64,000 bases of DNA, taken from IMG/VR virus record IMGVR_UViG_3300030108_005940, positions 64,001 through 128,000 of that record; one strand, 5' to 3'. Origin of the DNA: a virus. The notes beneath the pieces were generated by a model. The model was not told the DNA's origin and did not search any database. It saw only the letters and a list, made by a program, of their open reading frames with translations. This document shows, piece after piece, positions 12,430-49,882 of this stretch. Within the stretch, counting starts at the first letter, position 1. Every line of letters starts with the position of its first letter. The translations under genes and the position numbers were made by a program.

Positions 12430-13852
12430 CAATATTAGTTTCTGTGTATTTTATCTTCTCTGTTTCGTAAATTTCTTTACGCTTTACACAATGACGTAAA
12501 CCATATCTTAGCTTATCACATATATCAAATATAATAAGCTTGTTTTTTGAAGCATGTTTACGTAATCCACGACCTACTGACTGAACTGTACGTATAAACG
12601 ACTTTCCTCCTGCAGCAAATATAATATTATGTATATTTTTGATATTAACTCCAGTCGAAAATATAGAACTCATTGCTACACATATAACATTATCATCTTT
12701 TTCCATTATCCTCTTTATATCTTCGCGTGTTTCTACTTCTACTTCACCTCTTATAAAGTAAATTTGCTTATTTTTACATTGTGTCAGATATTCAGATAGA
12801 TTTACTCCGTGAGAGATATGATTAACAAGTATAAGGGTGTTATTCTCAAGCTTAGAGCATAATTTAGTAATAAAGTCGTTTCTAAAATGACTTTCGTAGA
12901 TATAATCTAGCTCTTCTCTATAAGCATTATCAGAAAGATAACGTGGAGGTGTGTTATACTCGAGATTTAACACCTTTACATTAACATTTGCTAAGTAATC
13001 TTCTAATCTAAGTTCATAACTCGATTTTTCATATATAACTGGACCTAATTTACCTATAATTGACCATTTATCTAGGTTATTCTCTGGAAGTGTACCTGTA
13101 AACCCATACTTGTTATGTGTTTTTATCTTAGATACAATTTTACTAATTTTATTTGATGATTTTATCTTATGACACTCATCAACAATTAGTAAATCTACAT
13201 ATTTTAACCAATCACTACTATCAAATTGACTCTGAACTATACCTATATTACAAATTATTACATTAGCAGTTAAGTCTGGTTTAGTTTTACCTGTCCATTT
13301 AGTTAATTTGAAGGTAGTACCACAGTTTAAAAACTCATCATATGTTTGAGATACCAATCCTAAATCAGGTACTAACATAATACACTTAAAAGTATCTTTA
13401 TCTTTACTATCTCTGAAGTAATTTTCAATAAGAGCGGCAGTCGTAAACGTTTTACCAGCACCTGTACCTAATACACACGTACCTCTACCTAATTTTAGTG
13501 CTTTTTTAACAACATCTTCTTGATACTCCCTTAGATTAAATGTAAAATTTTTAAATAATTCTATATTCTTACCAACTTTTAATATTTTTTGAAGCTTTTC
13601 ACTAACTTCAATATCTACTTTAACTTGCTCCTTAATAAGATATTGTCTTATTTCCCAATATAAACCTATTTCACAAGCACCTGTACCTGTTATTGCATAT
13701 TTTCTTCTAGCTGCAAAGCGACCTCTATATCTCGCAAAACGAGCTCCATCATTCTCTACACTAAAATGCTCTCTTATACGATCAAATAGATCTTTATCTT
13801 CAGATCTAAATTGTATCTTACGCGTACTTGAGTTATAATCAAAAGTTAACAT
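12419..13852 (-). CDS. uvsW: SF2 DNA helicase UvsW
   Basis: LREYQ, GTGAGKT, DECH, GFTGT, STGVNI, QSVGRGLR. Confidence 0.92.
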   Translation of the reverse strand: MLTFDYNSSTRKIQFRSEDKDLFDRIREHFSVENDGARFARYRGRFAARRKYAITGTGACEIGLYWEIRQYLIKEQVKVDIEVSEKLQKILKVGKNIELFKNFTFNLREYQEDVVKKALKLGRGTCVLGTGAGKTFTTAALIENYFRDSKDKDTFKCIMLVPDLGLVSQTYDEFLNCGTTFKLTKWTGKTKPDLTANVIICNIGIVQSQFDSSDWLKYVDLLIVDECHKIKSSNKISKIVSKIKTHNKYGFTGTLPENNLDKWSIIGKLGPVIYEKSSYELRLEDYLANVNVKVLNLEYNTPPRYLSDNAYREELDYIYESHFRNDFITKLCSKLENNTLILVNHISHGVNLSEYLTQCKNKQIYFIRGEVEVETREDIKRIMEKDDNVICVAMSSIFSTGVNIKNIHNIIFAAGGKSFIRTVQSVGRGLRKHASKNKLIIFDICDKLRYGLRHCVKRKEIYETEKIKYTETNIVEK

Positions 13853-14247
13853 TATAGTTGCTCCATCTTATTAATATCAACGATGTTTTTTATCTCCCAA
13901 TGCATATTACTAAAGATTTTTTCAACCTTTTCAAGATATTCAATAATAGCATCTAATTCCCCTATATTATCATTAAGATCAGCTATTGATTCATGCTTTT
14001 CTGCTGCTGACTCTGCTGCTGATTGTGTAATTCTTACTGGGGAATCAGTAATAACTTTTTTAACTACCTCTTTTTTAAGTTTTTTCTTTTTACTAATAAA
14101 AACATTACGTTTAACTTTTGCATCCATAAGTCTTGCTACCCAGAAATGCTTTCGAGCAGGTAGTCTCATTTGAGCTTCTTTTAGATTAAAATCATCAAGT
14201 ACAAAATCTTGACCAATTTCATCGATGTACTTTTTTAGCAATTCCAT
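13852..14247 (-). CDS. uvsY: UvsY-like recombination mediator
   Basis: Size, helical character, C-terminal WEIKNIV pattern, and position next to uvsW. Confidence 0.65.
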   Translation of the reverse strand: MELLKKYIDEIGQDFVLDDFNLKEAQMRLPARKHFWVARLMDAKVKRNVFISKKKKLKKEVVKKVITDSPVRITQSAAESAAEKHESIADLNDNIGELDAIIEYLEKVEKIFSNMHWEIKNIVDINKMEQL

Positions 14248-14253
14248 CTTTAT

Positions 14254-14281
14254 ATTATAAATATAATTACAATGGAATCAA
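14254..14281. promoter_or_regulatory. Overlapping divergent promoters: sigma70-type for uvsY (minus) and late TATAAATA (14256-14263, plus)
   Basis: attata 14254-14259 and aatcaa 14276-14281 (N16 spacing); TATAAATA 8 nt before ATG 14272. Confidence 0.65.
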
Positions 14282-14682
14282 CAGGTAGATTTGAACAGCT
14301 ATTTTTAAAAATATTAAAAGAGGATATAGATTCTAGTGCATTTGGTGATGGTCCTTCAATGCATGATATATATACTCCAAGCGAACCTAATTCAAAAGAT
14401 GGGTATGCACCTGGTGATGCAAGAATACCTAAAATTTTAGGTAAAGGTAAAATTCAAACTCGTAAAGGTTTAGCTGGTAAAAAGAAGAGAGATAAAAATA
14501 AAGGAATTAATTATTTAACTGGGGAAGAGAATGAAGAAGATTTACCGGAAGAAGATGCAGAAAAGAAAAAAGCAGATAGATGTAAGCGTAAAGCTGATTC
14601 TGTATATGGAAAAAAGACTTCAGCATATAAATCAGGAGCTATAGTAAGATGCAGAAGTGGTAAAATATGGAAAAAGAAATGA
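14272..14682 (+). CDS. Putative internal head protein with C-terminal basic Cys module
   Basis: N-terminal FEQLFLKILKE; EEDAE linker then KKKADRCKRKA...SAYKSGAIVRCR. Confidence 0.55.
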   Translation: MESTGRFEQLFLKILKEDIDSSAFGDGPSMHDIYTPSEPNSKDGYAPGDARIPKILGKGKIQTRKGLAGKKKRDKNKGINYLTGEENEEDLPEEDAEKKKADRCKRKADSVYGKKTSAYKSGAIVRCRSGKIWKKK

Positions 14683-15113
14683 GTATGTCACAAAGAGAAA
14701 TTCTTGAAGCTAGTGACTCACTACGTCAGTGGTTTGATAGAGGTGGTACTGATCCTAAAACTGGTAAAAAGTTTAAAGGTTGGGTAAATTGTAAGACCGG
14801 AGGACCCTGTGGTCGTAAATCTAAAAAATCTGGTGGTAGCTACCCGGCTTGTCGTCCAACTAAAGCAGCTTGTAAAAGTATTAAAGGTAAGATGTACAAG
14901 AAGAAAGGACCGAAGCGTGTTAACTGGAAGAATAAAAAGAAAAAGAGTGAAAATGCTGAAGATGTACATAAGCCTGTTAAGCCTGGTATCTTAAAGAGTC
15001 GACTAGGTAAACTATCTTGTAGTAAAGTAAGAGGTGCAAAAGGTAAACTTAAAAATAAGGGTACACATTATGCAAAAGCTCTACAGCGTTATTTAAATTA
15101 TCACTGTCAGTAA
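14679..15113 (+). CDS. Basic Cys-rich protein (DUF5872-like), putative internal head protein
   Basis: LRQWF...GWVNCKTGGPCGR...YPACRP; ENAE linker then a second basic module; ATGA overlap gives the start at 14679. Confidence 0.55.
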   Translation: MSMSQREILEASDSLRQWFDRGGTDPKTGKKFKGWVNCKTGGPCGRKSKKSGGSYPACRPTKAACKSIKGKMYKKKGPKRVNWKNKKKKSENAEDVHKPVKPGILKSRLGKLSCSKVRGAKGKLKNKGTHYAKALQRYLNYHCQ

Positions 15114-15124
15114 TAAATAATATT

Positions 15125-15589
15125 ATGCAATTCGACGAACTAGTAAAACACCTCTTAAAAGAAAACTGGAAACGAGGAACCTCAAAGTCTCCTAAGGGTA
15201 AATCATTTGATATGTCGAGAGGAGGAGCTCCTAGCAATGTAGATGCTGCAAGTGACGGTTCTGGTGGTAGGTATAGACGTACACGACCTCCAAGCGCACC
15301 ATCTAAGAAGACACACGGTGAGATGGAAGAAGAACCAGAAGAAGATGCTGAAAAGGTAGACAAAGATCGTATGAAGTGTAATAGTCCTCGTCGTACTTCA
15401 GGTGGTTCTAAGAAATTCGTTGTTAAAGCTTGTAAAGATGGTAAAGAAAAGATTGTACGCTTTGGGGATCCGAATATGAAGATCAAAAAGAGCAATCCAA
15501 AGCGTAGAAAGTCATTCCGCGCACGTCATAAGTGTGATCAGAAGAAAGATAAGTTCTCTGCTGGTTACTGGTCTTGTAAAAAGTGGTAG
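15125..15589 (+). CDS. Basic protein (DUF6321-like C-terminal module), putative internal head protein
   Basis: EEDAE linker then KKFVVK...VRFGDPNMKIKKSNPKRRKSFRARHKC...AGYWSCKKW; late promoter. Confidence 0.6.
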   Translation: MQFDELVKHLLKENWKRGTSKSPKGKSFDMSRGGAPSNVDAASDGSGGRYRRTRPPSAPSKKTHGEMEEEPEEDAEKVDKDRMKCNSPRRTSGGSKKFVVKACKDGKEKIVRFGDPNMKIKKSNPKRRKSFRARHKCDQKKDKFSAGYWSCKKW

Positions 15590-15981
15590 ATTTGGGTCAT
15601 TGGGAGGGGGTTCTAGAAGAAAGTACGGACCTACCTTACGGTTTCATTTATAAGATAACTAATCTTACTAATGACAAGAAGTATATTGGTAAAAAACAGT
15701 GCCAGTCAATAAGAAAGCGTCCCCCTTTGAAGGGTAAAAAGAATAAACGTCATGAAAGAATAGAAACTGACTGGAAGACTTACACATCTTCATCAAATGA
15801 GCTTAATAAAGACTTAGAACAGTTAGGAAAGGATAATTTTAAGTTTGAAATACTTAGATGGTGTGATTCCAAGTGGGAGTTGAGTTATTACGAAGCTAGA
15901 TTACAATTTAAAGAAGAAGTATTGCTACGTAATGACTACTATAACGGAATCATCAATGTCAGAATCGGAGGACGTAAGTGA
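15583..15981 (+). CDS. GIY-YIG family nuclease-like protein
   Basis: YGFIYKITNLTNDKKYIGKK...FKFEIL...E...YYN. Confidence 0.75.
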   Translation: MVDLGHWEGVLEESTDLPYGFIYKITNLTNDKKYIGKKQCQSIRKRPPLKGKKNKRHERIETDWKTYTSSSNELNKDLEQLGKDNFKFEILRWCDSKWELSYYEARLQFKEEVLLRNDYYNGIINVRIGGRK

Positions 15982-16426
15982 TCCTATACGTGGTTTTGAG
16001 TTTATTAACCTTAACAAGTGTTTAGCAAGGTCTTTTAACCAATATTTGTTGTATATTACTGAAAACGAGCTTAAATTAACAAGAAAAGATAAGAATAAGC
16101 TTGGTATACACTTTATTATTAAAGAAATAGTTAAGGTTTGCTCTAAAACTAGTAACAGAAAGTGGTTTTATTATAAGACCAATATTAAAACAATAGAATA
16201 TACCCTAGTAAAGCGTATTTTTAATGCACTACCTACTAATATTACATACAGTAAAGAAGATTTTACTACATTCTTAGATGAAAGAGACTATATCTCTTTT
16301 AATAAAAAAGACAAATCAGCAGTTTCATTTTATAAGTTTAGATTATTTCTTAGAAGGTACGAATTACAACAGATTGAAAGTGAGTTTCTATCTAATATAA
16401 ATATAAAACTCTCACTACTTCCATAA
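15932..16426 (+). CDS. Hypothetical protein (start may be 15956)
   Basis: ORF fills the gap between neighbouring genes. Confidence 0.5.
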   Translation: MTTITESSMSESEDVSDPIRGFEFINLNKCLARSFNQYLLYITENELKLTRKDKNKLGIHFIIKEIVKVCSKTSNRKWFYYKTNIKTIEYTLVKRIFNALPTNITYSKEDFTTFLDERDYISFNKKDKSAVSFYKFRLFLRRYELQQIESEFLSNINIKLSLLP

Positions 16427-16434
16427 ATATATAC

Positions 16435-16803
16435 ATGAGTAAGTTTCTTAAGCTGATCGATGAAAATAGACCAGGTATTAATAGTGAGTATGTAATTTCC
16501 ATTCAAGGACCTGCTGAGTTTGAAAATATTAACGTTTCAGGAGATGAATTTACATACGATTTACATGAAAAGATAAAAGCTGTAGTTGAAGGTAGAGCTG
16601 ATATTATAGTTCATGAAGAAGATCAAGAAGGTATTTTGTCGGACAAAGAAAGAGATGCTTTGAAGGTTGCTTCTGAGTTAGTAAAGGAACCTAAAAAGAG
16701 TGCATTTGGTAGGGATCCTAAAAAGGCTCTTCAAAAATCCCTTGGTAAAATGTATAAAGGAATATCAAAAAGAGTGAATGATGTAGCTAAAGATTTATCA
16801 TGA
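16435..16803 (+). CDS. Hypothetical late protein, capsid-targeting-like N-terminus
   Basis: TAAATA-N5-ATG; MSKFLKLIDE; EEDQE linker. Confidence 0.55.
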   Translation: MSKFLKLIDENRPGINSEYVISIQGPAEFENINVSGDEFTYDLHEKIKAVVEGRADIIVHEEDQEGILSDKERDALKVASELVKEPKKSAFGRDPKKALQKSLGKMYKGISKRVNDVAKDLS

Positions 16804-17141
16804 AAAAAACATTAAAATTAATAGAACAACAATTAGCTTTACTTGAGCAGGATGCAGTTGAAGAGGTAGATGTTGATGTTGAAATAGATGATGCAACTAA
16901 TGTTGCGGATATACCAAAATCACCTCGAGGTATTACCCCAGAGGGTGAGGTATATGTAGCTGATTTGTTAACAAACGCTTTTATATACGCACCAAGCATG
17001 GACGATATTAATATTGCTGCAGAATCAAATAAGGTGTTTGGAAGAACAGAACCTAGAAAAGTTATCGAGACAATCGAAAGGTTAGTTGAATTTTCTGATG
17101 AAACTGTTGAGCAAGAACTTGAAGATTTAGACGCACAATAA
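16800..17141 (+). CDS. Hypothetical acidic protein
   Basis: ATGA overlap; N-terminal MKKTLKLIEQQLALLE. Confidence 0.55.
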   Translation: MKKTLKLIEQQLALLEQDAVEEVDVDVEIDDATNVADIPKSPRGITPEGEVYVADLLTNAFIYAPSMDDINIAAESNKVFGRTEPRKVIETIERLVEFSDETVEQELEDLDAQ

Positions 17142-17142
17142 T

Positions 17143-18297
17143 ATGCAGTGGTCATTGGAAGATATCTATAAGAAGCAGGTACGGGGTAAAATTCCTGTGC
17201 GTAAACATCTACGAGTGTTAGGCGAAGATAATCAACAACAATTATTTAGACAATTGACTGGTGGTCAACGTAAAGGTGAAGAAGTTACGGTTTCACAAAA
17301 AGATCAAGAATCTGGTAAATATGATGTTGAGATAGGAGAGACGTTGACATTAACAGATGAAGATGTAGAAAATTTTAATTTATTATCTGATACCGATAAG
17401 CAAAAAATTAAAAAAATGTTAGATAGTAAAAATTTTGCTGGTCTATCTAGAAGCGCACTACACGGTGAAAGTGAAAAATATAAAAACCAGGCATATGAAA
17501 TATTATTAAAAAGCGGTGAATTAACCGGAGATCAATTAGAAAGTGTTTTGAGAGATATTCAAGCTGGAAAAGCAGTAAACGTTAATAAATTAGTAACACC
17601 CGGTAATTATAAGATACGTGATATATTTACTTCAGATGAATCTTTAACAGCTTTTAATTTATTACGTAATATTGGCTCTGGTGATTTACAAAAAGGACCT
17701 GGAGAGGTTGCTTTAGATTTAATGTCTCCGGATATTAACCTTTCTACAAAAGGAGACATTGACATTAATGGTGAACTGTATGAGTTAAAATTAAATGGAG
17801 GTCGTATAAGTGATAAAGCTGGACCAGATCCAAAGAAGATGAAAGATTTAATTGAATCTTATATAGGACCATTTGATTTAGGTCAGCAAGTTTTAAATAT
17901 AGAAAACTTTATTAAATTATTAAACGAAAGAGCTAAAACCAACCCCGATATTAATTTTAAAGAATTAGCTTATAGGGTATTTTCCTCTATCCTTGATGAA
18001 GAGCATTCAATTTCTATAGCAAATTTATTTGAAACTGTACCTTTGAACTTTGATAAAATTAATAATGAAGTAATTAAACAGAGTTTTAACTGGTATAAAG
18101 ATACTAAAGCAGGGACAGATGGTGAGTGGGATAAGCTTATAGGTATTAACACAGCAACTGCTGTACCTGGAGTTGCAGTTGTATCAACAGGAGAAGAATT
18201 TACAAAAGTGCCGCAGAAAAAACTTAACATTAATATTATTCGATCTGGGTCCGGTACCAGAGAAAATTATATAGATTTTTACCCTAAAATTGGATGA
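17143..18297 (+). CDS. Putative PD-(D/E)xK nuclease-like protein
   Basis: KGPGEVAL...GDIDINGELYELK..GGR resembles an E...D...ExK restriction-fold active site. Confidence 0.45.
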   Translation: MQWSLEDIYKKQVRGKIPVRKHLRVLGEDNQQQLFRQLTGGQRKGEEVTVSQKDQESGKYDVEIGETLTLTDEDVENFNLLSDTDKQKIKKMLDSKNFAGLSRSALHGESEKYKNQAYEILLKSGELTGDQLESVLRDIQAGKAVNVNKLVTPGNYKIRDIFTSDESLTAFNLLRNIGSGDLQKGPGEVALDLMSPDINLSTKGDIDINGELYELKLNGGRISDKAGPDPKKMKDLIESYIGPFDLGQQVLNIENFIKLLNERAKTNPDINFKELAYRVFSSILDEEHSISIANLFETVPLNFDKINNEVIKQSFNWYKDTKAGTDGEWDKLIGINTATAVPGVAVVSTGEEFTKVPQKKLNINIIRSGSGTRENYIDFYPKIG

Positions 18298-19502
18298 AAA
18301 AATTTAAATTATATTTTGAAGATTACTTAGAGCTTCTAGAAGAAGCTAAAGCTAATACTCACTTAACACATCTTGAAGAATTAATTCTTACCAAGGGAGC
18401 TGGGGGATATGATCAAGCTAAAGGCTTTTTAGTTAATTTACTAGGTCATCTACAAGGAAAGAGTAAGAGAAAGATCGGTACTACGGTAAAATGGGATGGA
18501 GCGCCTGCTATTTTTGCAGGTAAACATCCAGAAACTGGTAAATTTTTTGTTGGTACTAAATCTATCTTTAATAGAGAGCCTAAAATTAACTATACTGAGC
18601 AAGATATTGAAGTTAACCATGGACACGCTCCTGGTTTAGCAGATAAACTTAAAAAGGCTTTAAAATATCTACCTAAATTAGGTATTAAAAACATTGTACA
18701 AGGGGACTTTATGTTTGATTCTTCTTCTGTAAAGAAAGAAAACATCGATGGTGAGGTACATTACACTTTTCAACCAAATACAATTAAGTATGCTGTAGAA
18801 GCTGACTCAGATTTAGGTAAGCAAATAGCTAACTCTGTGTTTGGTATTATATTTCACACTGAATATGATGGTTTAGATAGTCCTGCATCATTTGGTGCCA
18901 AGGTAAACAAATTAAAGAAGGTACCAGGTGTATGGTTTGATGATGCTTTCTTTAAAGATGATACAGGGGTAGTAAATTTAACTAAAGATGAAGTAAAGCA
19001 GGTTAGAGATTTAATAAAAACTGCTGATTCTATCAAAATAGATTACAAAGACTTACCTTCAGATCTTCTCAACCCTTATATTAATACGGAGATTCGAGAA
19101 GGTAAGTTCTTAAATGATCCAGAAGAGTCTTATAGGAACTTTATTGATTGGTATACATCTAGAATTAAAAAAGAAATAGATAAGAGAAAATCTGTACGAG
19201 GTAAGCAAAGATTAGAAGAAACACTTAAGCAAAAAACGGCTCAGTTTGAAGCTCAAAAAGATGATATAGTTAATTTGTTTAAAGTAAGTAGTTTACTATC
19301 ACAAGCTAAACAAATCTTTATTAACAAGTATAATAATGCTGTATATAATACAAAGCACTTTATCGATGAAGGTGAAGGTGTATTGAGAGTTACTTCTCCG
19401 GAGGGATATGTAGCAGTTGATAGGGATGGTAATGCTGTTAAGCTTGTTAACCGGTTAGATTTTAGTTCAGCTAACTTTCAAAAAGATAAGCCCGGGTCAT
19501 GA
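18294..19502 (+). CDS. DUF6267-like protein with RNA-ligase/nucleotidyltransferase motifs
   Basis: NTHLTHLEE, TVKWDGAPA (KxDG), QGD, EGYV, VKLVNR. Confidence 0.65.
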   Translation: MKKFKLYFEDYLELLEEAKANTHLTHLEELILTKGAGGYDQAKGFLVNLLGHLQGKSKRKIGTTVKWDGAPAIFAGKHPETGKFFVGTKSIFNREPKINYTEQDIEVNHGHAPGLADKLKKALKYLPKLGIKNIVQGDFMFDSSSVKKENIDGEVHYTFQPNTIKYAVEADSDLGKQIANSVFGIIFHTEYDGLDSPASFGAKVNKLKKVPGVWFDDAFFKDDTGVVNLTKDEVKQVRDLIKTADSIKIDYKDLPSDLLNPYINTEIREGKFLNDPEESYRNFIDWYTSRIKKEIDKRKSVRGKQRLEETLKQKTAQFEAQKDDIVNLFKVSSLLSQAKQIFINKYNNAVYNTKHFIDEGEGVLRVTSPEGYVAVDRDGNAVKLVNRLDFSSANFQKDKPGS

Positions 19503-20038
19503 GGACATTTAAGGAGTATTTCGAAGATATGGAGACGAGAGTGGATAGAATCGCTCTACTCCCGGGTGGTTTTAAACCTCCAACAAAGGGTCATTTTAAT
19601 GCTTTGAGGTATTTACTTGATGATGCTGATCGTGGTGTTGTATTTATTGGTGGTAAGGAGCGTGAAGGTATTACACCTGAGCAATCTGAGCAAATATGGA
19701 ACATATATACAAAGTATGTTGATAAGCCTGTTGAAGTTGTATATGTACCTAATCCAGTAAGAGCTGTATATGATTTTGCTGATAATAATTTAGACAAGAC
19801 TTTGCTCGTTGGCGCTGGTGAAAAGGACGAAGATGTTAAACGTTATAAATATTTTTTAGATAATGTTGAAAAATACCCCTACGTTAATGTAGTAAAGATA
19901 CCTATGCAAGAAGAAGGTATATCAGGTAGTGATACTAGAAAAATGATACAACAAGATATAGATGATGCATTAGATTATTTTGTACCTGATAATGTATCCA
20001 TTGAAGATAGAGATCAAATAAAAGCTATACTAGCATAA
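19499..20038 (+). CDS. HIGH-superfamily cytidylyl/adenylyltransferase-like protein
   Basis: PGGFKPPTKGH and ISGSDTR motifs; N-terminus MRTFKEYFE. Confidence 0.8.
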   Translation: MRTFKEYFEDMETRVDRIALLPGGFKPPTKGHFNALRYLLDDADRGVVFIGGKEREGITPEQSEQIWNIYTKYVDKPVEVVYVPNPVRAVYDFADNNLDKTLLVGAGEKDEDVKRYKYFLDNVEKYPYVNVVKIPMQEEGISGSDTRKMIQQDIDDALDYFVPDNVSIEDRDQIKAILA

Positions 20039-20046
20039 ATAATAAT

Positions 20047-20481
20047 ATGAGAGATAAGAAGCGTAAAGAATTAGCTATGCTTGAAGAAGCCTATACAAAG
20101 GTTAATGAAAATTTAGGACCAGCAGCTCTTACTGCTTCAGTACCAGGTGTAAGTCAAATGCCTTTAGTAGTTGCACAAGAACCTGTTGAAGACGAAAGTT
20201 GTGGTGAATATGATCAATCAGAAATTGATATGGCGGGTAGAGATTTACTTAAAGCACAAGAGTACGCAGCTAAGTTAACCGCTATGGTACAGCAGGTTCC
20301 AGGTTTAGATGGATGGGTTTCCGCTAAGATAACAAAAGCTTCAGATTATCTTTCCTCTGTATACCATTTTCTCGATTATGAGTTACGCGAAAAACCACAA
20401 GAAGTTGTTGTAGATGTAGAGGAGATTGAAGCTCCAGTAGACGTCTTTAATGTTGGGTATGAAGAAGCAGAAACCACTTGA
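20047..20481 (+). CDS. Putative internal head protein
   Basis: TAAATA-N5-ATG; MA..L..A..YA..L...LDGWVSAKITKASDYL module of the kind seen in T4-like phage proteins. Confidence 0.5.
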   Translation: MRDKKRKELAMLEEAYTKVNENLGPAALTASVPGVSQMPLVVAQEPVEDESCGEYDQSEIDMAGRDLLKAQEYAAKLTAMVQQVPGLDGWVSAKITKASDYLSSVYHFLDYELREKPQEVVVDVEEIEAPVDVFNVGYEEAETT

Positions 20482-20505
20482 CCTGATTCATAAATAGCAG
20501 TTGTT

Positions 20506-20946
20506 ATGAAGAAGTTTAACCAATTTTTTATAGAAAAACAAGTCTTAGGATTAATAGAATTCTTTGATGTGGATGGTGTTGGTAAAATTCCTTCAAAGCT
20601 TGATTCCGGTAATGGTGCATATAACGTTATACATGGTGAAGATATACAAATACAGGGTAATAAAGTATTGTTTAGAACAGTAAATAACAAACACCTTATA
20701 AAAGATAAAATAGACGATATTGTTATTAACGTAGGTGCAGGTAATACAGAAGAAAGACCTGTAGTTAACTTCGATCTTAAAATAGGTAATAAAGAGTTTA
20801 AAGATATTCCTTTCTCAGTTGGTAATAGAGAGAGTAACTTATTTAAAATATTAGTAAGTAAAGAATTTATTGAAAAGGAACTCGATGCTCTTATTGACGT
20901 GAGTCAGGAAAATATTGCAGGTAAAGATATTGAAGCTAATTACTAA
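20506..20946 (+). CDS. Retropepsin-like (RimK-associated Zn_protease family) aspartic protease
   Basis: KLDSGNGA catalytic D-S-G, ERPVV, R..LFKILV; N-terminus MKKFNQFFIE. Confidence 0.75.
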   Translation: MKKFNQFFIEKQVLGLIEFFDVDGVGKIPSKLDSGNGAYNVIHGEDIQIQGNKVLFRTVNNKHLIKDKIDDIVINVGAGNTEERPVVNFDLKIGNKEFKDIPFSVGNRESNLFKILVSKEFIEKELDALIDVSQENIAGKDIEANY

Positions 20947-21473
20947 AACCAAGTAGGTTTCCAGCGTAATGTCCAAGTAGCAAAGTCTTTATCATGACGA
21001 ATATACTCTCTATATTTGTCAATTGTAGAAAGATTATCAAAACCTTCTACTTTTCTACAATCGCAATCATTGCTGATAGCTAAAGCATAATCGGTTAAAC
21101 CAGTTTTACTCATAATTGTATTATGAATATTTTGACCACACCACTCAATAAACGTTTTTGTAAAATGCTCTTTAGATTCAGGCCACCTATACATACGTTC
21201 AGTAAACATTTCCAGCGTATGGTCAACTAACCATATAAAGTTATCTTTAGTTTCTCTTGCCCATATAGAACATTGATGGTTGAAATAACCTTTACCTCTT
21301 CTTCGAGGTTTTCCTGTTGAAGTTCTAGGAGTAGAAGGATGATCTAACACTTCTTGAGGAAATGCATGTGCTAACATAATAGCTCCTTCAATTTGCATCT
21401 TTGATCTTACATGTTGATCACATAAATTATAAGTAGAGACGATAGGGTCGTCATCCGTTACAAAAATATTCAT
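20943..21473 (-). CDS. Pyrimidine-dimer DNA glycosylase (DenV/Pyr_excise)-like protein
   Basis: MNIF..DDDP...LCDQHV..KM..E...ML; NHQCSIWAR; YREY. Confidence 0.75.
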   Translation of the reverse strand: MNIFVTDDDPIVSTYNLCDQHVRSKMQIEGAIMLAHAFPQEVLDHPSTPRTSTGKPRRRGKGYFNHQCSIWARETKDNFIWLVDHTLEMFTERMYRWPESKEHFTKTFIEWCGQNIHNTIMSKTGLTDYALAISNDCDCRKVEGFDNLSTIDKYREYIRHDKDFATWTLRWKPTWF

Positions 21474-21495: not shown

Positions 21496-22545
21496 TTATC
21501 TTAATCCAGTAGATTCAAAAACATCTCTAGTAACACCAGCTTTAAAACCACCTTCAATACCTTTTACAATAACCGATACAGCATTGTGACTATGTAAGCT
21601 TTCGTTATGAGAAGCAACGATCTTAAAGTCTAAAATACGAGATTCATTAGTAAGTTTTTCATAAAGCAATCTAACTGCATCTTCTACAAACTTTAAATAA
21701 GCACCATTCTTTTCAGCAAATGCTTGCTCATCTTCCCTCTTAACCATAACTTGAGTCTCAGTCTGTAAAGCCGCTAGGCATAACTCTTGAATATCTTCAA
21801 TCCAAAGCATATCTTCAAATCTAACACTAACACGAGCAACACTTCTTTGACTATGAGGTACAGTAGCTCTATTACGATATTTTTCAGCATGCTCACTTAA
21901 CTCAAAGCTGCAAGGGCAAGCAGAAGAATAAACAAAATCAAAATGAATATACTTTTTAAATTGACCATCTTTAGTTAAATCACCTTCAAATACTACATCA
22001 TAATACTGATAACCTTCTAAACCACTACGTAAACTATTTTGCTTAATAGGGTAAGATATTTTAAGCATTATTCTAGAATCAAAGCACTTAAGATTATTTT
22101 TATAAGTTTCTAAAACATCTTTAATTTTATCTATACTAAACGTTTCATCTTTATGATCATAAAAACTTCTCATAATACGTGACATATTAATACCTTTCTT
22201 ATGAGCTTCTAAACTAACACTACCTGTTACACTTGTTTCAAGTTCAATAGTTTTACCATTTCTTTTCTTGTATGTTAAAGGTAATTTAAAATTATGTATA
22301 CCAACTTGTTGAATAGGAACTGCTGCTCCTTGAATTAAACTAGAAGGTCCGTTCTGAAGATCAGGTAATGAAGAAATATATTTTTTATTAGCGTTAACTT
22401 TATCATCATAAACTCTAATAGGAGGAAAATAACTCTTGCTATATTCCTCGCCCATTAACTCTTTTGCAATAATATCCTTTTCACCAGTTAGTTCATCATC
22501 TTCACCTAACCATTCATAATTAGTATCTTCTTTACTTTTACTCAT
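21496..22545 (-). CDS. folE2: GTP cyclohydrolase IB
   Basis: LPDLQ, KGINMSR, YSSACPCS, PHSQRS, VKREDEQ, FVEDAVR, ESLHSHNA. Confidence 0.93.
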   Translation of the reverse strand: MSKSKEDTNYEWLGEDDELTGEKDIIAKELMGEEYSKSYFPPIRVYDDKVNANKKYISSLPDLQNGPSSLIQGAAVPIQQVGIHNFKLPLTYKKRNGKTIELETSVTGSVSLEAHKKGINMSRIMRSFYDHKDETFSIDKIKDVLETYKNNLKCFDSRIMLKISYPIKQNSLRSGLEGYQYYDVVFEGDLTKDGQFKKYIHFDFVYSSACPCSFELSEHAEKYRNRATVPHSQRSVARVSVRFEDMLWIEDIQELCLAALQTETQVMVKREDEQAFAEKNGAYLKFVEDAVRLLYEKLTNESRILDFKIVASHNESLHSHNAVSVIVKGIEGGFKAGVTRDVFESTGLR

Positions 22546-40543: not shown

Positions 40544-40944
40544 AAAAAATATTTACGAATGGTTGTTTTGATATTTTACATGTCGGTCATTTACAACTAT
40601 TTGAATATGCAAAAAGTTTCGGTTACCTTTACGTTGGTGTCGATTCAGATGACAAAGTAAAGAAAGATAAGGGTGAAGATAGACCCTATAATAAATTATC
40701 TGATAGAATAAAAATGCTTCAATCGCTACGTTTTGTAGATGAAGTTCGTAGTTTTGATAGTTCCCAGGGTTTACGAGATTTAATTAAAGAAATTAACCCC
40801 GATATAATGATAATAGGTTCCGATTGGCGAGGTAAACCTGTCATTGGACAGGAACATGCAAAGGAACTTAAATTTTTTGAAAGAATTAAAGGGTATTCTA
40901 CAACTGGTATATTAGAATATGACTACTATCGTTTACGTAAATAA
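40540..40944 (+). CDS. Heptose-1-phosphate adenylyltransferase (HldE/RfaE domain II-like)
   Basis: FTNGCFDILHVGH, KG..RP, GSDW, YSTT. Confidence 0.88.
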   Translation: MKKIFTNGCFDILHVGHLQLFEYAKSFGYLYVGVDSDDKVKKDKGEDRPYNKLSDRIKMLQSLRFVDEVRSFDSSQGLRDLIKEINPDIMIIGSDWRGKPVIGQEHAKELKFFERIKGYSTTGILEYDYYRLRK

Positions 40945-49216: not shown

Positions 49217-49882
49217 ATGTCATTAAAGCTTAACTTGGTTGTAGAAAAACCTGATGTGAACGATGAGTTCGAATACATTGAAGAAGAAGTAGATAGAAAC
49301 TCACCTTCGAATTTATATATAAAAGGTCCTTATATGATGGCTGAAGGGGTAAATAGAAATAATCGTTTATACCCTCTAGATGAATTACAAAGAGAAACAC
49401 AACGTTATATTGAGGAAATGGTTACACCAGGCCGTGCAATGGGAGAGCTAAATCACCCAACATCAGCAGATGTAGATCTAGAAAGAGCGTGTCATATGGT
49501 AACAGAGTTAACCCAAGATGGAAATGTATTTTATGGTAAGTCAAAAGTATTATCTACGCCGTGTGGTCAAATAGTTAGATCTTTAATAAATGACGGTGTA
49601 AAAGTAGGTATGTCTTCACGAGCTTTAGGCACACTTGAAGAGAGTAGTGAGCATAGTACCGTTAAAAATATGAAATTAGTTGCTATTGATTGTGTAGCAG
49701 ATCCATCATATCCAAAAGCTTTTGTTAATGGTATATTAGAATCTAAACAATGGGTATTGGTTGATGATAATAAATACGAAGAAGTTTATGAAAATTTTGA
49801 AAAATCACTACAAAAACTACCAAAAAAAGACATTGATTTGTTTTTACGTAACAGAATCCTTAGCTTTATTAAATCAATATAA
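49217..49882 (+). CDS. gp21: Prohead protease (gp21)
   Basis: NRNNRLY, GELNHP, TPCG, GMSSRALG, D.VADPS. Confidence 0.93.
   Translation: MSLKLNLVVEKPDVNDEFEYIEEEVDRNSPSNLYIKGPYMMAEGVNRNNRLYPLDELQRETQRYIEEMVTPGRAMGELNHPTSADVDLERACHMVTELTQDGNVFYGKSKVLSTPCGQIVRSLINDGVKVGMSSRALGTLEESSEHSTVKNMKLVAIDCVADPSYPKAFVNGILESKQWVLVDDNKYEEVYENFEKSLQKLPKKDIDLFLRNRILSFIKSI

Follow-up and report, generated by a model that had tools for sequence, protein, structure and literature searches.

Why should a marine T4-like virus keep a protein family of unassigned function coupled to a small adenylyltransferase-like enzyme, and at what stage of infection would the two act? The question is raised by two adjoining genes in a window of 64,000 nucleotides, positions 64001-128000 of a 154.6-kb record from an uncultured T4-like virus of ocean origin (IMG/VR record IMGVR_UViG_3300030108_005940). 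The first gene (18294-19502, 402 aa) encodes a DUF6267 protein with a ligase-like covalent nucleotidyltransferase fold, and the second (19499-20038, 179 aa) a HIGH-family nucleotidyltransferase with a fold nearest to phosphopantetheine adenylyltransferase (PPAT, CoaD) and to the nicotinamide and nicotinate mononucleotide adenylyltransferases (NMNAT and NaMNAT). Both genes, and all motifs cited in them, lie on the plus strand. A sequence-only reading of this DNA had taken them for a virion-delivered enzyme module. We give about even chances to the explanation that they form an injected, pre-packaged pair, a ligase-type enzyme and an adenylyltransferase, which would act on nucleic-acid ends as soon as infection begins. 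Compared with phage genomes by megablast, 20 kb of the window found no match, and among sequenced phages the virus has no close relative at the DNA level.

The DUF6267 protein and its ligase-like fold

The open reading frame (ORF) at 18294-19502 is a full-length member of Pfam DUF6267 (PF19782, E 3.8e-99), the family to which the sequence-only reading had likened it, and of PHROG 455; neither has an assigned function, and a text search of the literature found no paper mentioning DUF6267. The family is represented by 7,978 matches among 8,000 scored candidates in 90% clusters, by 2,401 metagenome clusters at 50% identity, and by 410 sequenced phage genomes, the majority of them cyanomyoviruses. 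Almost all carriers are marine T4-like phages of Synechococcus, Prochlorococcus, Pelagibacter, and Methylophilales, to which Stenotrophomonas phage DLP6 is added.

Conservation was read from an alignment of 94 homologues (35-77% identity). Motif I, TVKWDG (residues 64-69; 18483-18500), has K66, D68, and G69 invariant, and nucleotidylation is predicted to take place on K66. Motifs IV and V (EGYV, 370-373, to VKL, 382-384; 19401-19445) have E370, G371, and K383 invariant. Between them are found a motif III-like VQGD (residues 135-138) on strand 134-142, with Q136, G137, and D138 at least 90% conserved, and a motif IIIa-like GIIFH (residues 184-188) with G184 and H188 invariant; F159 and Y166 are also conserved, and the III and IIIa labels were given without residue-level structural superposition. 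Eight of the 13 invariant columns (K66, D68, G69, G184, H188, E370, G371, and K383) fall within the named motifs, a placement far beyond chance. The earlier claim of ligase/capping-enzyme motifs in this ORF is thus borne out, each named motif resting on columns that are invariant or at least 90% conserved. An invariant H-L-x-H segment precedes the core.

Sequence comparison adds independent support for a ligase-like nature. Three of the 94 members touch PF09511 (RNA_lig_T4_1, the T4 Rnl1 family; best E 6e-4), and the window protein itself gives no match to that profile at E<=10. By hhalign and phmmer, E370-G371...K383 aligns with E227-G228...K240 of T4 Rnl1 (motifs IV-V); in hhalign this stretch is the only alignment obtained with T4 Rnl1, and none is obtained with T4 Rnl2. 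The single protein and the 94-sequence profile give only low-complexity matches against PDB sequences, ESM Atlas returns only unnamed viral clusters, and no ligase family is matched significantly by the sequence of the window protein.

Structure prediction had been proposed as a check together with Foldseek. It does yield a ligase-like fold, so the refuting outcome named in the sequence-only reading, absence of such a fold, did not occur. The AlphaFold2 model (predicted local distance difference test score, pLDDT, 92.4; predicted template modelling score 0.88) consists of N-terminal helices, a beta-rich core carrying motifs I-IIIa within a split nucleotidyltransferase core, an all-helical insertion, some 120 aa long (residues 231-349), that separates motif IIIa from motif IV, and a pair of short beta hairpins bearing motifs IV and V, followed by one helix; the chain ends 19 residues past motif V. 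When representatives of the whole PDB were searched with an exhaustive structural aligner, the top nine matches were all RNA ligases (Z 8.8-6.9), including NgrRnl (8.8), Trl1 (8.0), REL1 (7.6), T4 Rnl1 (7.5), T4 Rnl2 (7.4), and archaeal Rnl3, and DNA ligases ranked after them (Z about 6). In a second-look search all 50 rows were polynucleotide ligases, NgrRnl coming first (Z 9.0, root-mean-square deviation (rmsd) 3.8 Å, 183 aligned), followed by T4 Rnl1 (8.1), Trl1 (8.0), REL1 (7.9), Rnl2 (7.4), and DNA ligase I (6.8). In BFVD, the family's own members are followed by annotated phage RNA ligases, mixed with unnamed and other entries. The exclusive enrichment of ligases, together with the invariant motif residues, makes a chance match implausible, and the modelled structure places DUF6267 in the covalent nucleotidyltransferase superfamily. 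No capping enzyme was among the top structural matches. A reading as an NAD+-dependent LigA-like enzyme, with the N-terminal helices as an analogue of domain Ia, was unsupported, no LigA being present in the top structural rows.

The ATP-dependent RNA ligases NgrRnl of Naegleria (Rnl5, PDB 5cot/6vt0), T4 Rnl1, the ligase domain of fungal Trl1, T. brucei REL1, and T4 Rnl2 share with DUF6267 the nucleotidyltransferase core (Z 9.0-7.4, about 175-200 residues aligned), the KxDG of motif I, the EG of motif IV, and the first lysine of motif V, and the spacing from IV to V is 13 residues in DUF6267 and 14 in NgrRnl. DUF6267 differs from them in its helical insertion, in having no accessory domain of the Rnl1, Rnl2, Rnl3, or Rnl5 type, in the replacement of the second motif V lysine, in its own invariant H-L-x-H and capsid-tag-like leader, and in its persistent partnership or fusion with a HIGH transferase. 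Since it fails the Rnl1, Rnl2, and DNA-ligase profiles and has an architecture of its own, the most fitting description is that of a new ligase-like family.

The partner transferase and gene coupling

The second protein carries the two signatures noted in the sequence-only reading: TKGH (residues 29-32; 19583-19594), of the nucleotide-binding type (T/H)xGH, and ISGSDTR (residues 141-147; 19919-19939), of the type ISxxxxR. In an alignment of 36 members T29, K30, G31, and H32 are invariant, as are G143 and R147, the other positions of the second signature being variable. The protein itself stays below Pfam thresholds and does not reach PF01467, which fused relatives do reach; its weak matches are with PHROGs annotated as cytidylyltransferase, with structures of PPAT, and with the NCBIfam models for PPAT and NMNAT. 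Its model (pLDDT 85) matches PPAT in Foldseek (E 3e-5), and structural alignment (VIA) gives PPAT Z 13.6 (rmsd 2.7, 146 residues), NadM-type NMNAT 12.7, archaeal NMNAT 12.2, and NaMNATs about 11-12. The protein thus shares the fold of CoaD, NadM, NadD, and NadR over a core of 165 residues (Z 13.6 and 12.7-11.9), with PPAT-like TxGH and ISxxxxR, and differs from PPAT and NMNAT enzymes in its low identity (12-20%), its extra N-terminal leader, and the virion association of its relatives. Its Rossmann-like fold and its signatures therefore place it in the adenylyltransferase branch of HIGH enzymes. The earlier NadD/CoaD-like label holds for signatures and fold, and fails at the cut-offs of the curated equivalogs TIGR01510 (17.8 bits vs 103.3), TIGR01527 (15.0 vs 181.2), and TIGR00482 (15.5 vs 112.45); in the model, the fold does not separate PPAT from NMNAT, that is, the phosphate acceptor. 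The closest relative in a cultured phage is gp088 of Flavobacterium phage immuto (locus L010, 4119-6842), annotated NMNAT/NadR, in which the TKGH transferase lies mid-chain in a protein of 907 aa with remaining parts of no clear family.

The transferase gene starts at 19499, and the DUF6267 stop codon occupies 19500-19502, which is the ATGA overlap previously described. The same overlap joins DUF6267 (start 18294) to an upstream plus-strand ORF of 384 aa (17143-18297; stop 18295-18297), so that the three genes are translationally coupled. In relatives the connection goes further, and fusions of DUF6267 with a transferase are found in many phages and in both orders. The fused transferase is of the same TKGH type in P0117 (607 aa) and of the HxGH type in P0115, P0119, and P0241; it is N-terminal in P0248, L026, L029, and L030, and P0312 adds DUF5824, a domain for which a search of the present genome was negative. 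In phage S-PM2 DUF6267 was first annotated as two pieces, the C-terminal half being joined to a 'cytidyltransferase'; on re-sequencing the protein is a single chain of 591 aa.

Where the genes are separate, a recurring order is seen in P-HM2, S-SM1, HTVC008M, Melnitz, and DLP6, namely a variable gene, DUF6267, optionally a small basic gene, and a cytidylyltransferase. The small genes following DUF6267 in HTVC008M, Melnitz, and DLP6 were considered as the transferase and rejected, as they encode basic proteins and the cytidylyltransferase is the next, larger gene. Among 57 informative IMG/VR loci, scored for a fusion or a cytidylyltransferase within the fetched downstream flank of up to 5 kb, the fusion is present in six and a separate transferase gene in 25, in most cases one to three genes downstream (31/57 in total). 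In the ten closest loci (L021-L030) the transferase is adjacent, nearby, or fused in nine, and L027 yielded no DUF6267 ORF. The link is frequent and not universal. A DruA-like protein (PF14236, a Druantia component, E 6e-10) is encoded upstream of DUF6267 in six phage loci, including L070 (3131-4246).

Leader peptides and virion association

Both proteins start with similar decapeptides, MKKFKLYFED in DUF6267 (18294-18323), which resembles the T4 capsid-targeting sequence, and MRTFKEYFED in the transferase (19499-19528), with M1, F4, and E6 invariant in the transferase family. T4 ipII and ipIII both start MKTYQEFIAE, the decapeptide that Mullaney and Black reportedly defined by experiment as the capsid-targeting tag of T4. 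A conserved capsid-targeting sequence is common to diverse T-even internal proteins (PMC3012670, in which the sequence itself is absent). The window leaders share with T4 IPII/IPIII and Alt a methionine, a basic residue, an aromatic at position 4, hydrophobics at 7-8, and an acidic residue at 10. A near-copy of the IPII/IPIII decapeptide is also found in T4 gp61.1 (NC_000866, 18966-19130; L102), a 54-aa hypothetical protein encoded beside the primase gene 61.

A strict pattern that requires a starting Met, an aromatic residue at position 4, hydrophobic ones at 7-8, and an acidic one at 10 selects four of 409 ORFs in T4, these being ipII, ipIII, 61.1, and one false positive. It selects four of 251 ORFs in the present genome, namely ORF 16435, DUF6267, the transferase, and ORF 20506, which all sit within 4.5 kb (16435-20946). 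In 80 related loci the leader is present on 43 of 69 complete DUF6267 ORFs and on 36 of 1,052 other ORFs, an enrichment of about 18-fold. In these relatives it is 9 or 10 residues long and stands directly before the H-L-x-H segment; many of the transferases also bear it (one reads MKTYQRFMTE). The DLP6 DUF6267 starts MMKFTQFLAE, that of Melnitz has a partial leader, and those of HTVC008M and of the cyanophages, T4-GC71 included, have none. The phage also encodes a T4-type prohead protease gp21 (Peptidase_S77, E 1e-33; 49289-49747, plus strand; record positions 113289-113747), which in T4 processes capsid-targeted proteins. Likeness to the T4 internal proteins thus extends to this protease, to clustered genes with late-promoter-like boxes, and to homologues detected in virions. 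The cargo differs: two nucleotidyl-transfer enzymes, of predicted packaging, in place of T4's small basic anti-restriction proteins or ADP-ribosyltransferase.

Virion detection concerns the partner. In purified S-SM1 virions the cytidylyltransferase T4-GC190 was found with 25 peptide counts, similar to gp6 and gp22 (PMC3037559, Suppl. Table 8). T4-GC190 of S-SM1 is the transferase SSM1_190, starts MKKFSAFLNE, and is flagged as core among 16 compared cyanomyoviruses. The neighbouring genes SSM1_188, 191, and 192 likewise have their products in these virions (PMC3037559), and a cytidylyltransferase/NMNAT-like protein is present in S-CREM2 and S-SCSM1 virions, whose authors proposed virion carriage and attached a caveat of carry-over (PMC10665884, PMC9602691). 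Virion association of the transferase is therefore already published; its coupling to a ligase-fold enzyme is absent from the proteome literature consulted on it. The S-SM1 DUF6267 protein (SSM1_189; L011, 5296-6270) is short (324 aa), and nothing in it aligns with profile positions of about 134-257 and 290-341, a range that takes in the region of motifs III and IIIa and some of the helical insertion. This member may have degenerated or been remodelled, which could be a reason for its absence from the S-SM1 virion proteome.

Possible role of the pair and its surroundings

From fold, catalytic-motif conservation, gene coupling and fusion, the leader pattern, and the published virion detection of partner homologues, we infer the packaging of both proteins, the ligase chemistry, its substrate, and the division of labour between the enzymes. 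The pair would be made late, loaded into the prohead through the T4-type leader, and delivered with the DNA into the cell. DUF6267, with a core nearest to nick-sealing and tRNA-repair RNA ligases, would be a polynucleotide-ligase-type enzyme in which a nucleotide donor charges Lys66 of KWDG with a nucleotidyl group, most likely AMP, for transfer to a 5'-phosphate end, after which attack by a 3'-OH would seal the break; its basic helical insertion (231-349) probably substitutes for the missing oligonucleotide-binding (OB) or C-terminal nucleic-acid-binding domain. The partner, a putative PPAT/NMNAT-type enzyme, would use ATP to adenylylate a phosphate acceptor. It may belong to the same reaction path, making or regenerating the adenylate donor of the ligase (an NAD-like dinucleotide) or activating the acceptor. 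The pre-made pair would join or mark broken RNA or DNA ends ahead of any phage gene expression. A stricter version, in which ligase chemistry itself is split over two folds, the HIGH enzyme making an NAD-like donor or adenylylating the 5'-phosphate and DUF6267 completing the joining after capsid delivery, is held to be improbable.

Gene content of the carriers bears on such a role. Cyanomyoviruses are without gp30 DNA ligase, rnlA, and pseT, the latter two being absent from T4-like marine phages, and a distant unrecognised homologue was left open (PMC2984593, PMC1079782). In the present record, which is estimated to be 72% complete so that absences from it are no proof, PF01068 (DNA_ligase_A_M), PF01653 (LigA-type), and PF09414 (Rnl2-type) gave nothing, PF09511 not having been searched genome-wide. 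Nor did HTVC008M, Melnitz, P-HM2, or S-SM1, searched for PF01068 and PF09414 but not for the LigA and Rnl1 types, yield a ligase of either family. Of the five complete genomes that carry DUF6267, four thus are without a DNA_ligase_A_M or Rnl2-type ligase, the exception being DLP6, and DUF6267 is the only ligase-fold protein of these four among the families searched.

In relatives, DUF6267 has an AAA_33/Zeta P-loop kinase gene beside it (HTVC008M gp129; 5 loci), and in 18 loci a HAD-type DxDxT phosphatase-like gene, weakly matched in Pfam (E 1.8e-4, 21.5 bits vs a 27-bit cut-off). Kinase and phosphatase are the two activities of T4 Pnkp, and these neighbours favour a role in end healing and sealing. 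Some relatives thus recall the tRNA repair of T4 by Pnkp and Rnl1, from which the present system differs in having no kinase or phosphatase in the record, in enzymes that are proposed to be pre-packaged and not early-expressed, and in a HIGH enzyme with no counterpart in T4.

Several observations weigh against an injected end-joining pair. The second lysine of motif V (K-x-K) is replaced by V385, leaving the pair incomplete, with R387 at least 90% conserved nearby. The DUF6267 model shows no OB, C-terminal, or recognisable nucleic-acid-binding domain, its Z scores of 8-9 are only slightly over the background of the structure search, and the proposed Foldseek check, positive for the transferase, returned nothing for DUF6267 against the PDB at E<=1e-3, ligases holding the highest probabilities. 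About half of the DUF6267 loci are without a cytidylyltransferase within 5 kb. Searches of the genome record found no AAA_33/PNK-type kinase, HAD phosphatase, tRNA genes, or Nampt. Both window leaders end in F-E-D at positions 8-10 and not in the T4 gp21 site (L/I)-x-E, the L-x-E ending being present in many relatives, including DLP6, and DUF6267 (T4-GC71) was undetected in the virion proteomes of S-SM1, S-PM2, and Syn9. Because of the last two points, packaging of the two window proteins is a reasoned prediction. The capsid-targeting-like N-termini of the sequence-only reading hold as a pattern, matching IPII/IPIII in four of 251 ORFs, and lack the cleavage site; the virion-delivered module has indirect backing from partner homologues in S-SM1, S-CREM2, and S-SCSM1 virions and none from the S-SM1, S-PM2, and Syn9 proteomes as regards DUF6267 itself.

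These same points give room to the explanation that the N-terminal peptide is no capsid signal, that the proteins act late in the cytoplasm, and that homologues in virions are carry-over, against which the proteome authors themselves cautioned. We regard it as somewhat unlikely, since DUF6267 ORFs have the leader about 18 times as often as other ORFs, the genes that bear it lie close together in this genome, T4 ipII and ipIII begin with such a decapeptide, and the peptide counts of GC190 are similar to those of gp6 and gp22. The leader has another possible meaning if DUF6267 serves marine T4-like phages as their 'missing' replicative DNA ligase, sealing Okazaki fragments and recombination nicks in place of gp30, with the adenylyltransferase supplying an NAD+/ATP-type cofactor and the N-terminal peptide contacting the replisome clamp. 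The lack of a gp30 homologue in cyanomyoviruses, for which the literature left room for a distant one (PMC2984593, PMC1079782), the position of the gene directly after uvsX/gp41/mazG in cyanophages, HTVC008M, and Melnitz, and the four of five complete carriers without the searched ligases would all suit this, and in our reading the leader may loosely fit the aromatic pattern of a PCNA-interacting-peptide (PIP) box. The PIP-like clamp motif was ranked below the capsid tag because the leader matches T4 ipII/ipIII and because of the virion proteomes. DUF6267 does share the superfamily core with gp30 and other ATP-dependent DNA ligases (Z about 6-7), but it has no PF01068 match and no OB or DNA-binding domain, and RNA ligases stand structurally above DNA ligases. 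As DLP6 carries gp30 and DUF6267 together, RNA ligases rank first, and the partner and flanking genes encode virion proteins in S-SM1, simple replacement of a replicative ligase is disfavoured and seems improbable.

The incomplete motif V pair and the missing OB domain would also fit an altered third step, as expected if DUF6267 were an injected end-modifier, capping or adenylylating the 5' ends of phage DNA or of RNA from either host or phage, for instance for genome-end protection or redirection of RNA fate, the HIGH enzyme making an unusual nucleotide donor. Capping enzymes have the same motifs and Lys-NMP chemistry, and the non-canonical caps known from RNA 5' ends include products of PPAT-, NMNAT-, and FAD-synthetase-type enzymes. 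The proposal is inferential throughout, with no capping enzyme in the top structural matches and no triphosphatase or methyltransferase partner, and is judged decidedly improbable. The chances are poorer still for a pair devoted to NAD-type cofactor supply or counter-defence, in which the HIGH enzyme would be an NMNAT rebuilding NAD+ on entry and DUF6267 an NAD+/ATP-consuming adenylyltransferase of a small molecule, or of the same pathway, that joins no strands. We know of no ligase-superfamily member acting on small molecules only, the curated NMNAT and PPAT models score 15-18 bits against cut-offs of 103-181, no Nampt for making NMN was found in the genome, and the fold cannot tell PPAT from NMNAT. 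What speaks for it is the NMNAT-like fold of the transferase, the NMNAT/NadR annotation of relatives, the kinase beside the cytidylyltransferase in HTVC008M, which makes a NadR-like combination of kinase and NMNAT, and the interpretation of the virion-associated enzyme as NMNAT (PMC9602691, PMC10665884).

If DUF6267 is proven to be of ligase type, a new polynucleotide-ligase family would be defined, and the result would bear on the 20-year-old puzzle that no DNA ligase, RNA ligase, or Pnkp can be recognised in marine T4-like phages. Should the pair be packaged and injected, enzymes of nucleic-acid repair or nucleotide-cofactor chemistry would join the few injected enzymes known from phages, such as Alt and N4 virion RNA polymerase, and the 'cytidylyltransferase' recurring in cyanophage virion proteomes would be accounted for. 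Ligation divided between the two folds, if true, would give marine T4-like phages a pre-loaded means of sealing RNA and DNA breaks before any phage gene expression. A ligase so compact, and with a novel accessory module, could be of use as a reagent too.

The pair likely belongs to a plus-strand unit that starts at a T4-late-promoter-like octamer, TATAAATA (16396-16403, plus strand), directly 5' of ORF 16435, and runs through both genes. The octamer occurs 12 times in the window against 18 expected, not above chance, so that the promoter function inferred for this copy is supported by position alone. The 384-aa ORF at 17143-18297 matches no Pfam family, and comparison with the genes that precede DUF6267 in HTVC008M, Melnitz, DLP6, P-HM2, and S-SM1 detected no homology. 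Its body contains a GD...E-x-K motif, with weak language-model leads to the PD-(D/E)xK restriction endonucleases R.HinP1I, SmaI, and Eco47II (scores <0.8), and its first 28 residues, which end in L-G-E, recur at 89-97% identity in many otherwise unrelated proteins (364-554 aa). Such a conserved module, attached to differing cargo, could represent another type of leader, for targeting or for processing. Downstream, the 146-aa ORF at 20506-20946 (plus strand) has the same leader type as the pair and a sub-threshold match to the retropepsin/RimB-like 'Zn_protease' family (PF05618, E 1.3e-4), and probably belongs to the same cargo cluster.

Further genes of the window include a UvsY-like protein on the minus strand (13852-14247; PF11056, E 6e-4, 20.7 bits, just missing the cut-off of 22.8) and, after another TATAAATA at 14256, three ORFs at 14272-15589 with Lys/Arg-rich, Cys-containing modules of no Pfam family. 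These are akin to the small basic genes following DUF6267 in HTVC008M and Melnitz and may encode DNA-associated internal proteins. A SegE-type GIY-YIG homing endonuclease (15583-15981; PF19835, E 3e-33) lies inside the run of leader-bearing and basic small ORFs. Elsewhere the genome has another domain of the CTP_transf_like type, a canonical one (40552-40827; PF01467, E 3e-19), which is unrelated to the pair and ends a sugar-pathway cluster. On the minus strand beyond the cargo cluster are a member of PHROG 624, 'DNA binding protein' (20943-21473), and a FolE2-type GTP cyclohydrolase I (21496-22545; PF02649, E 2e-72), which suggests a 7-deazaguanine pathway beside the cluster.

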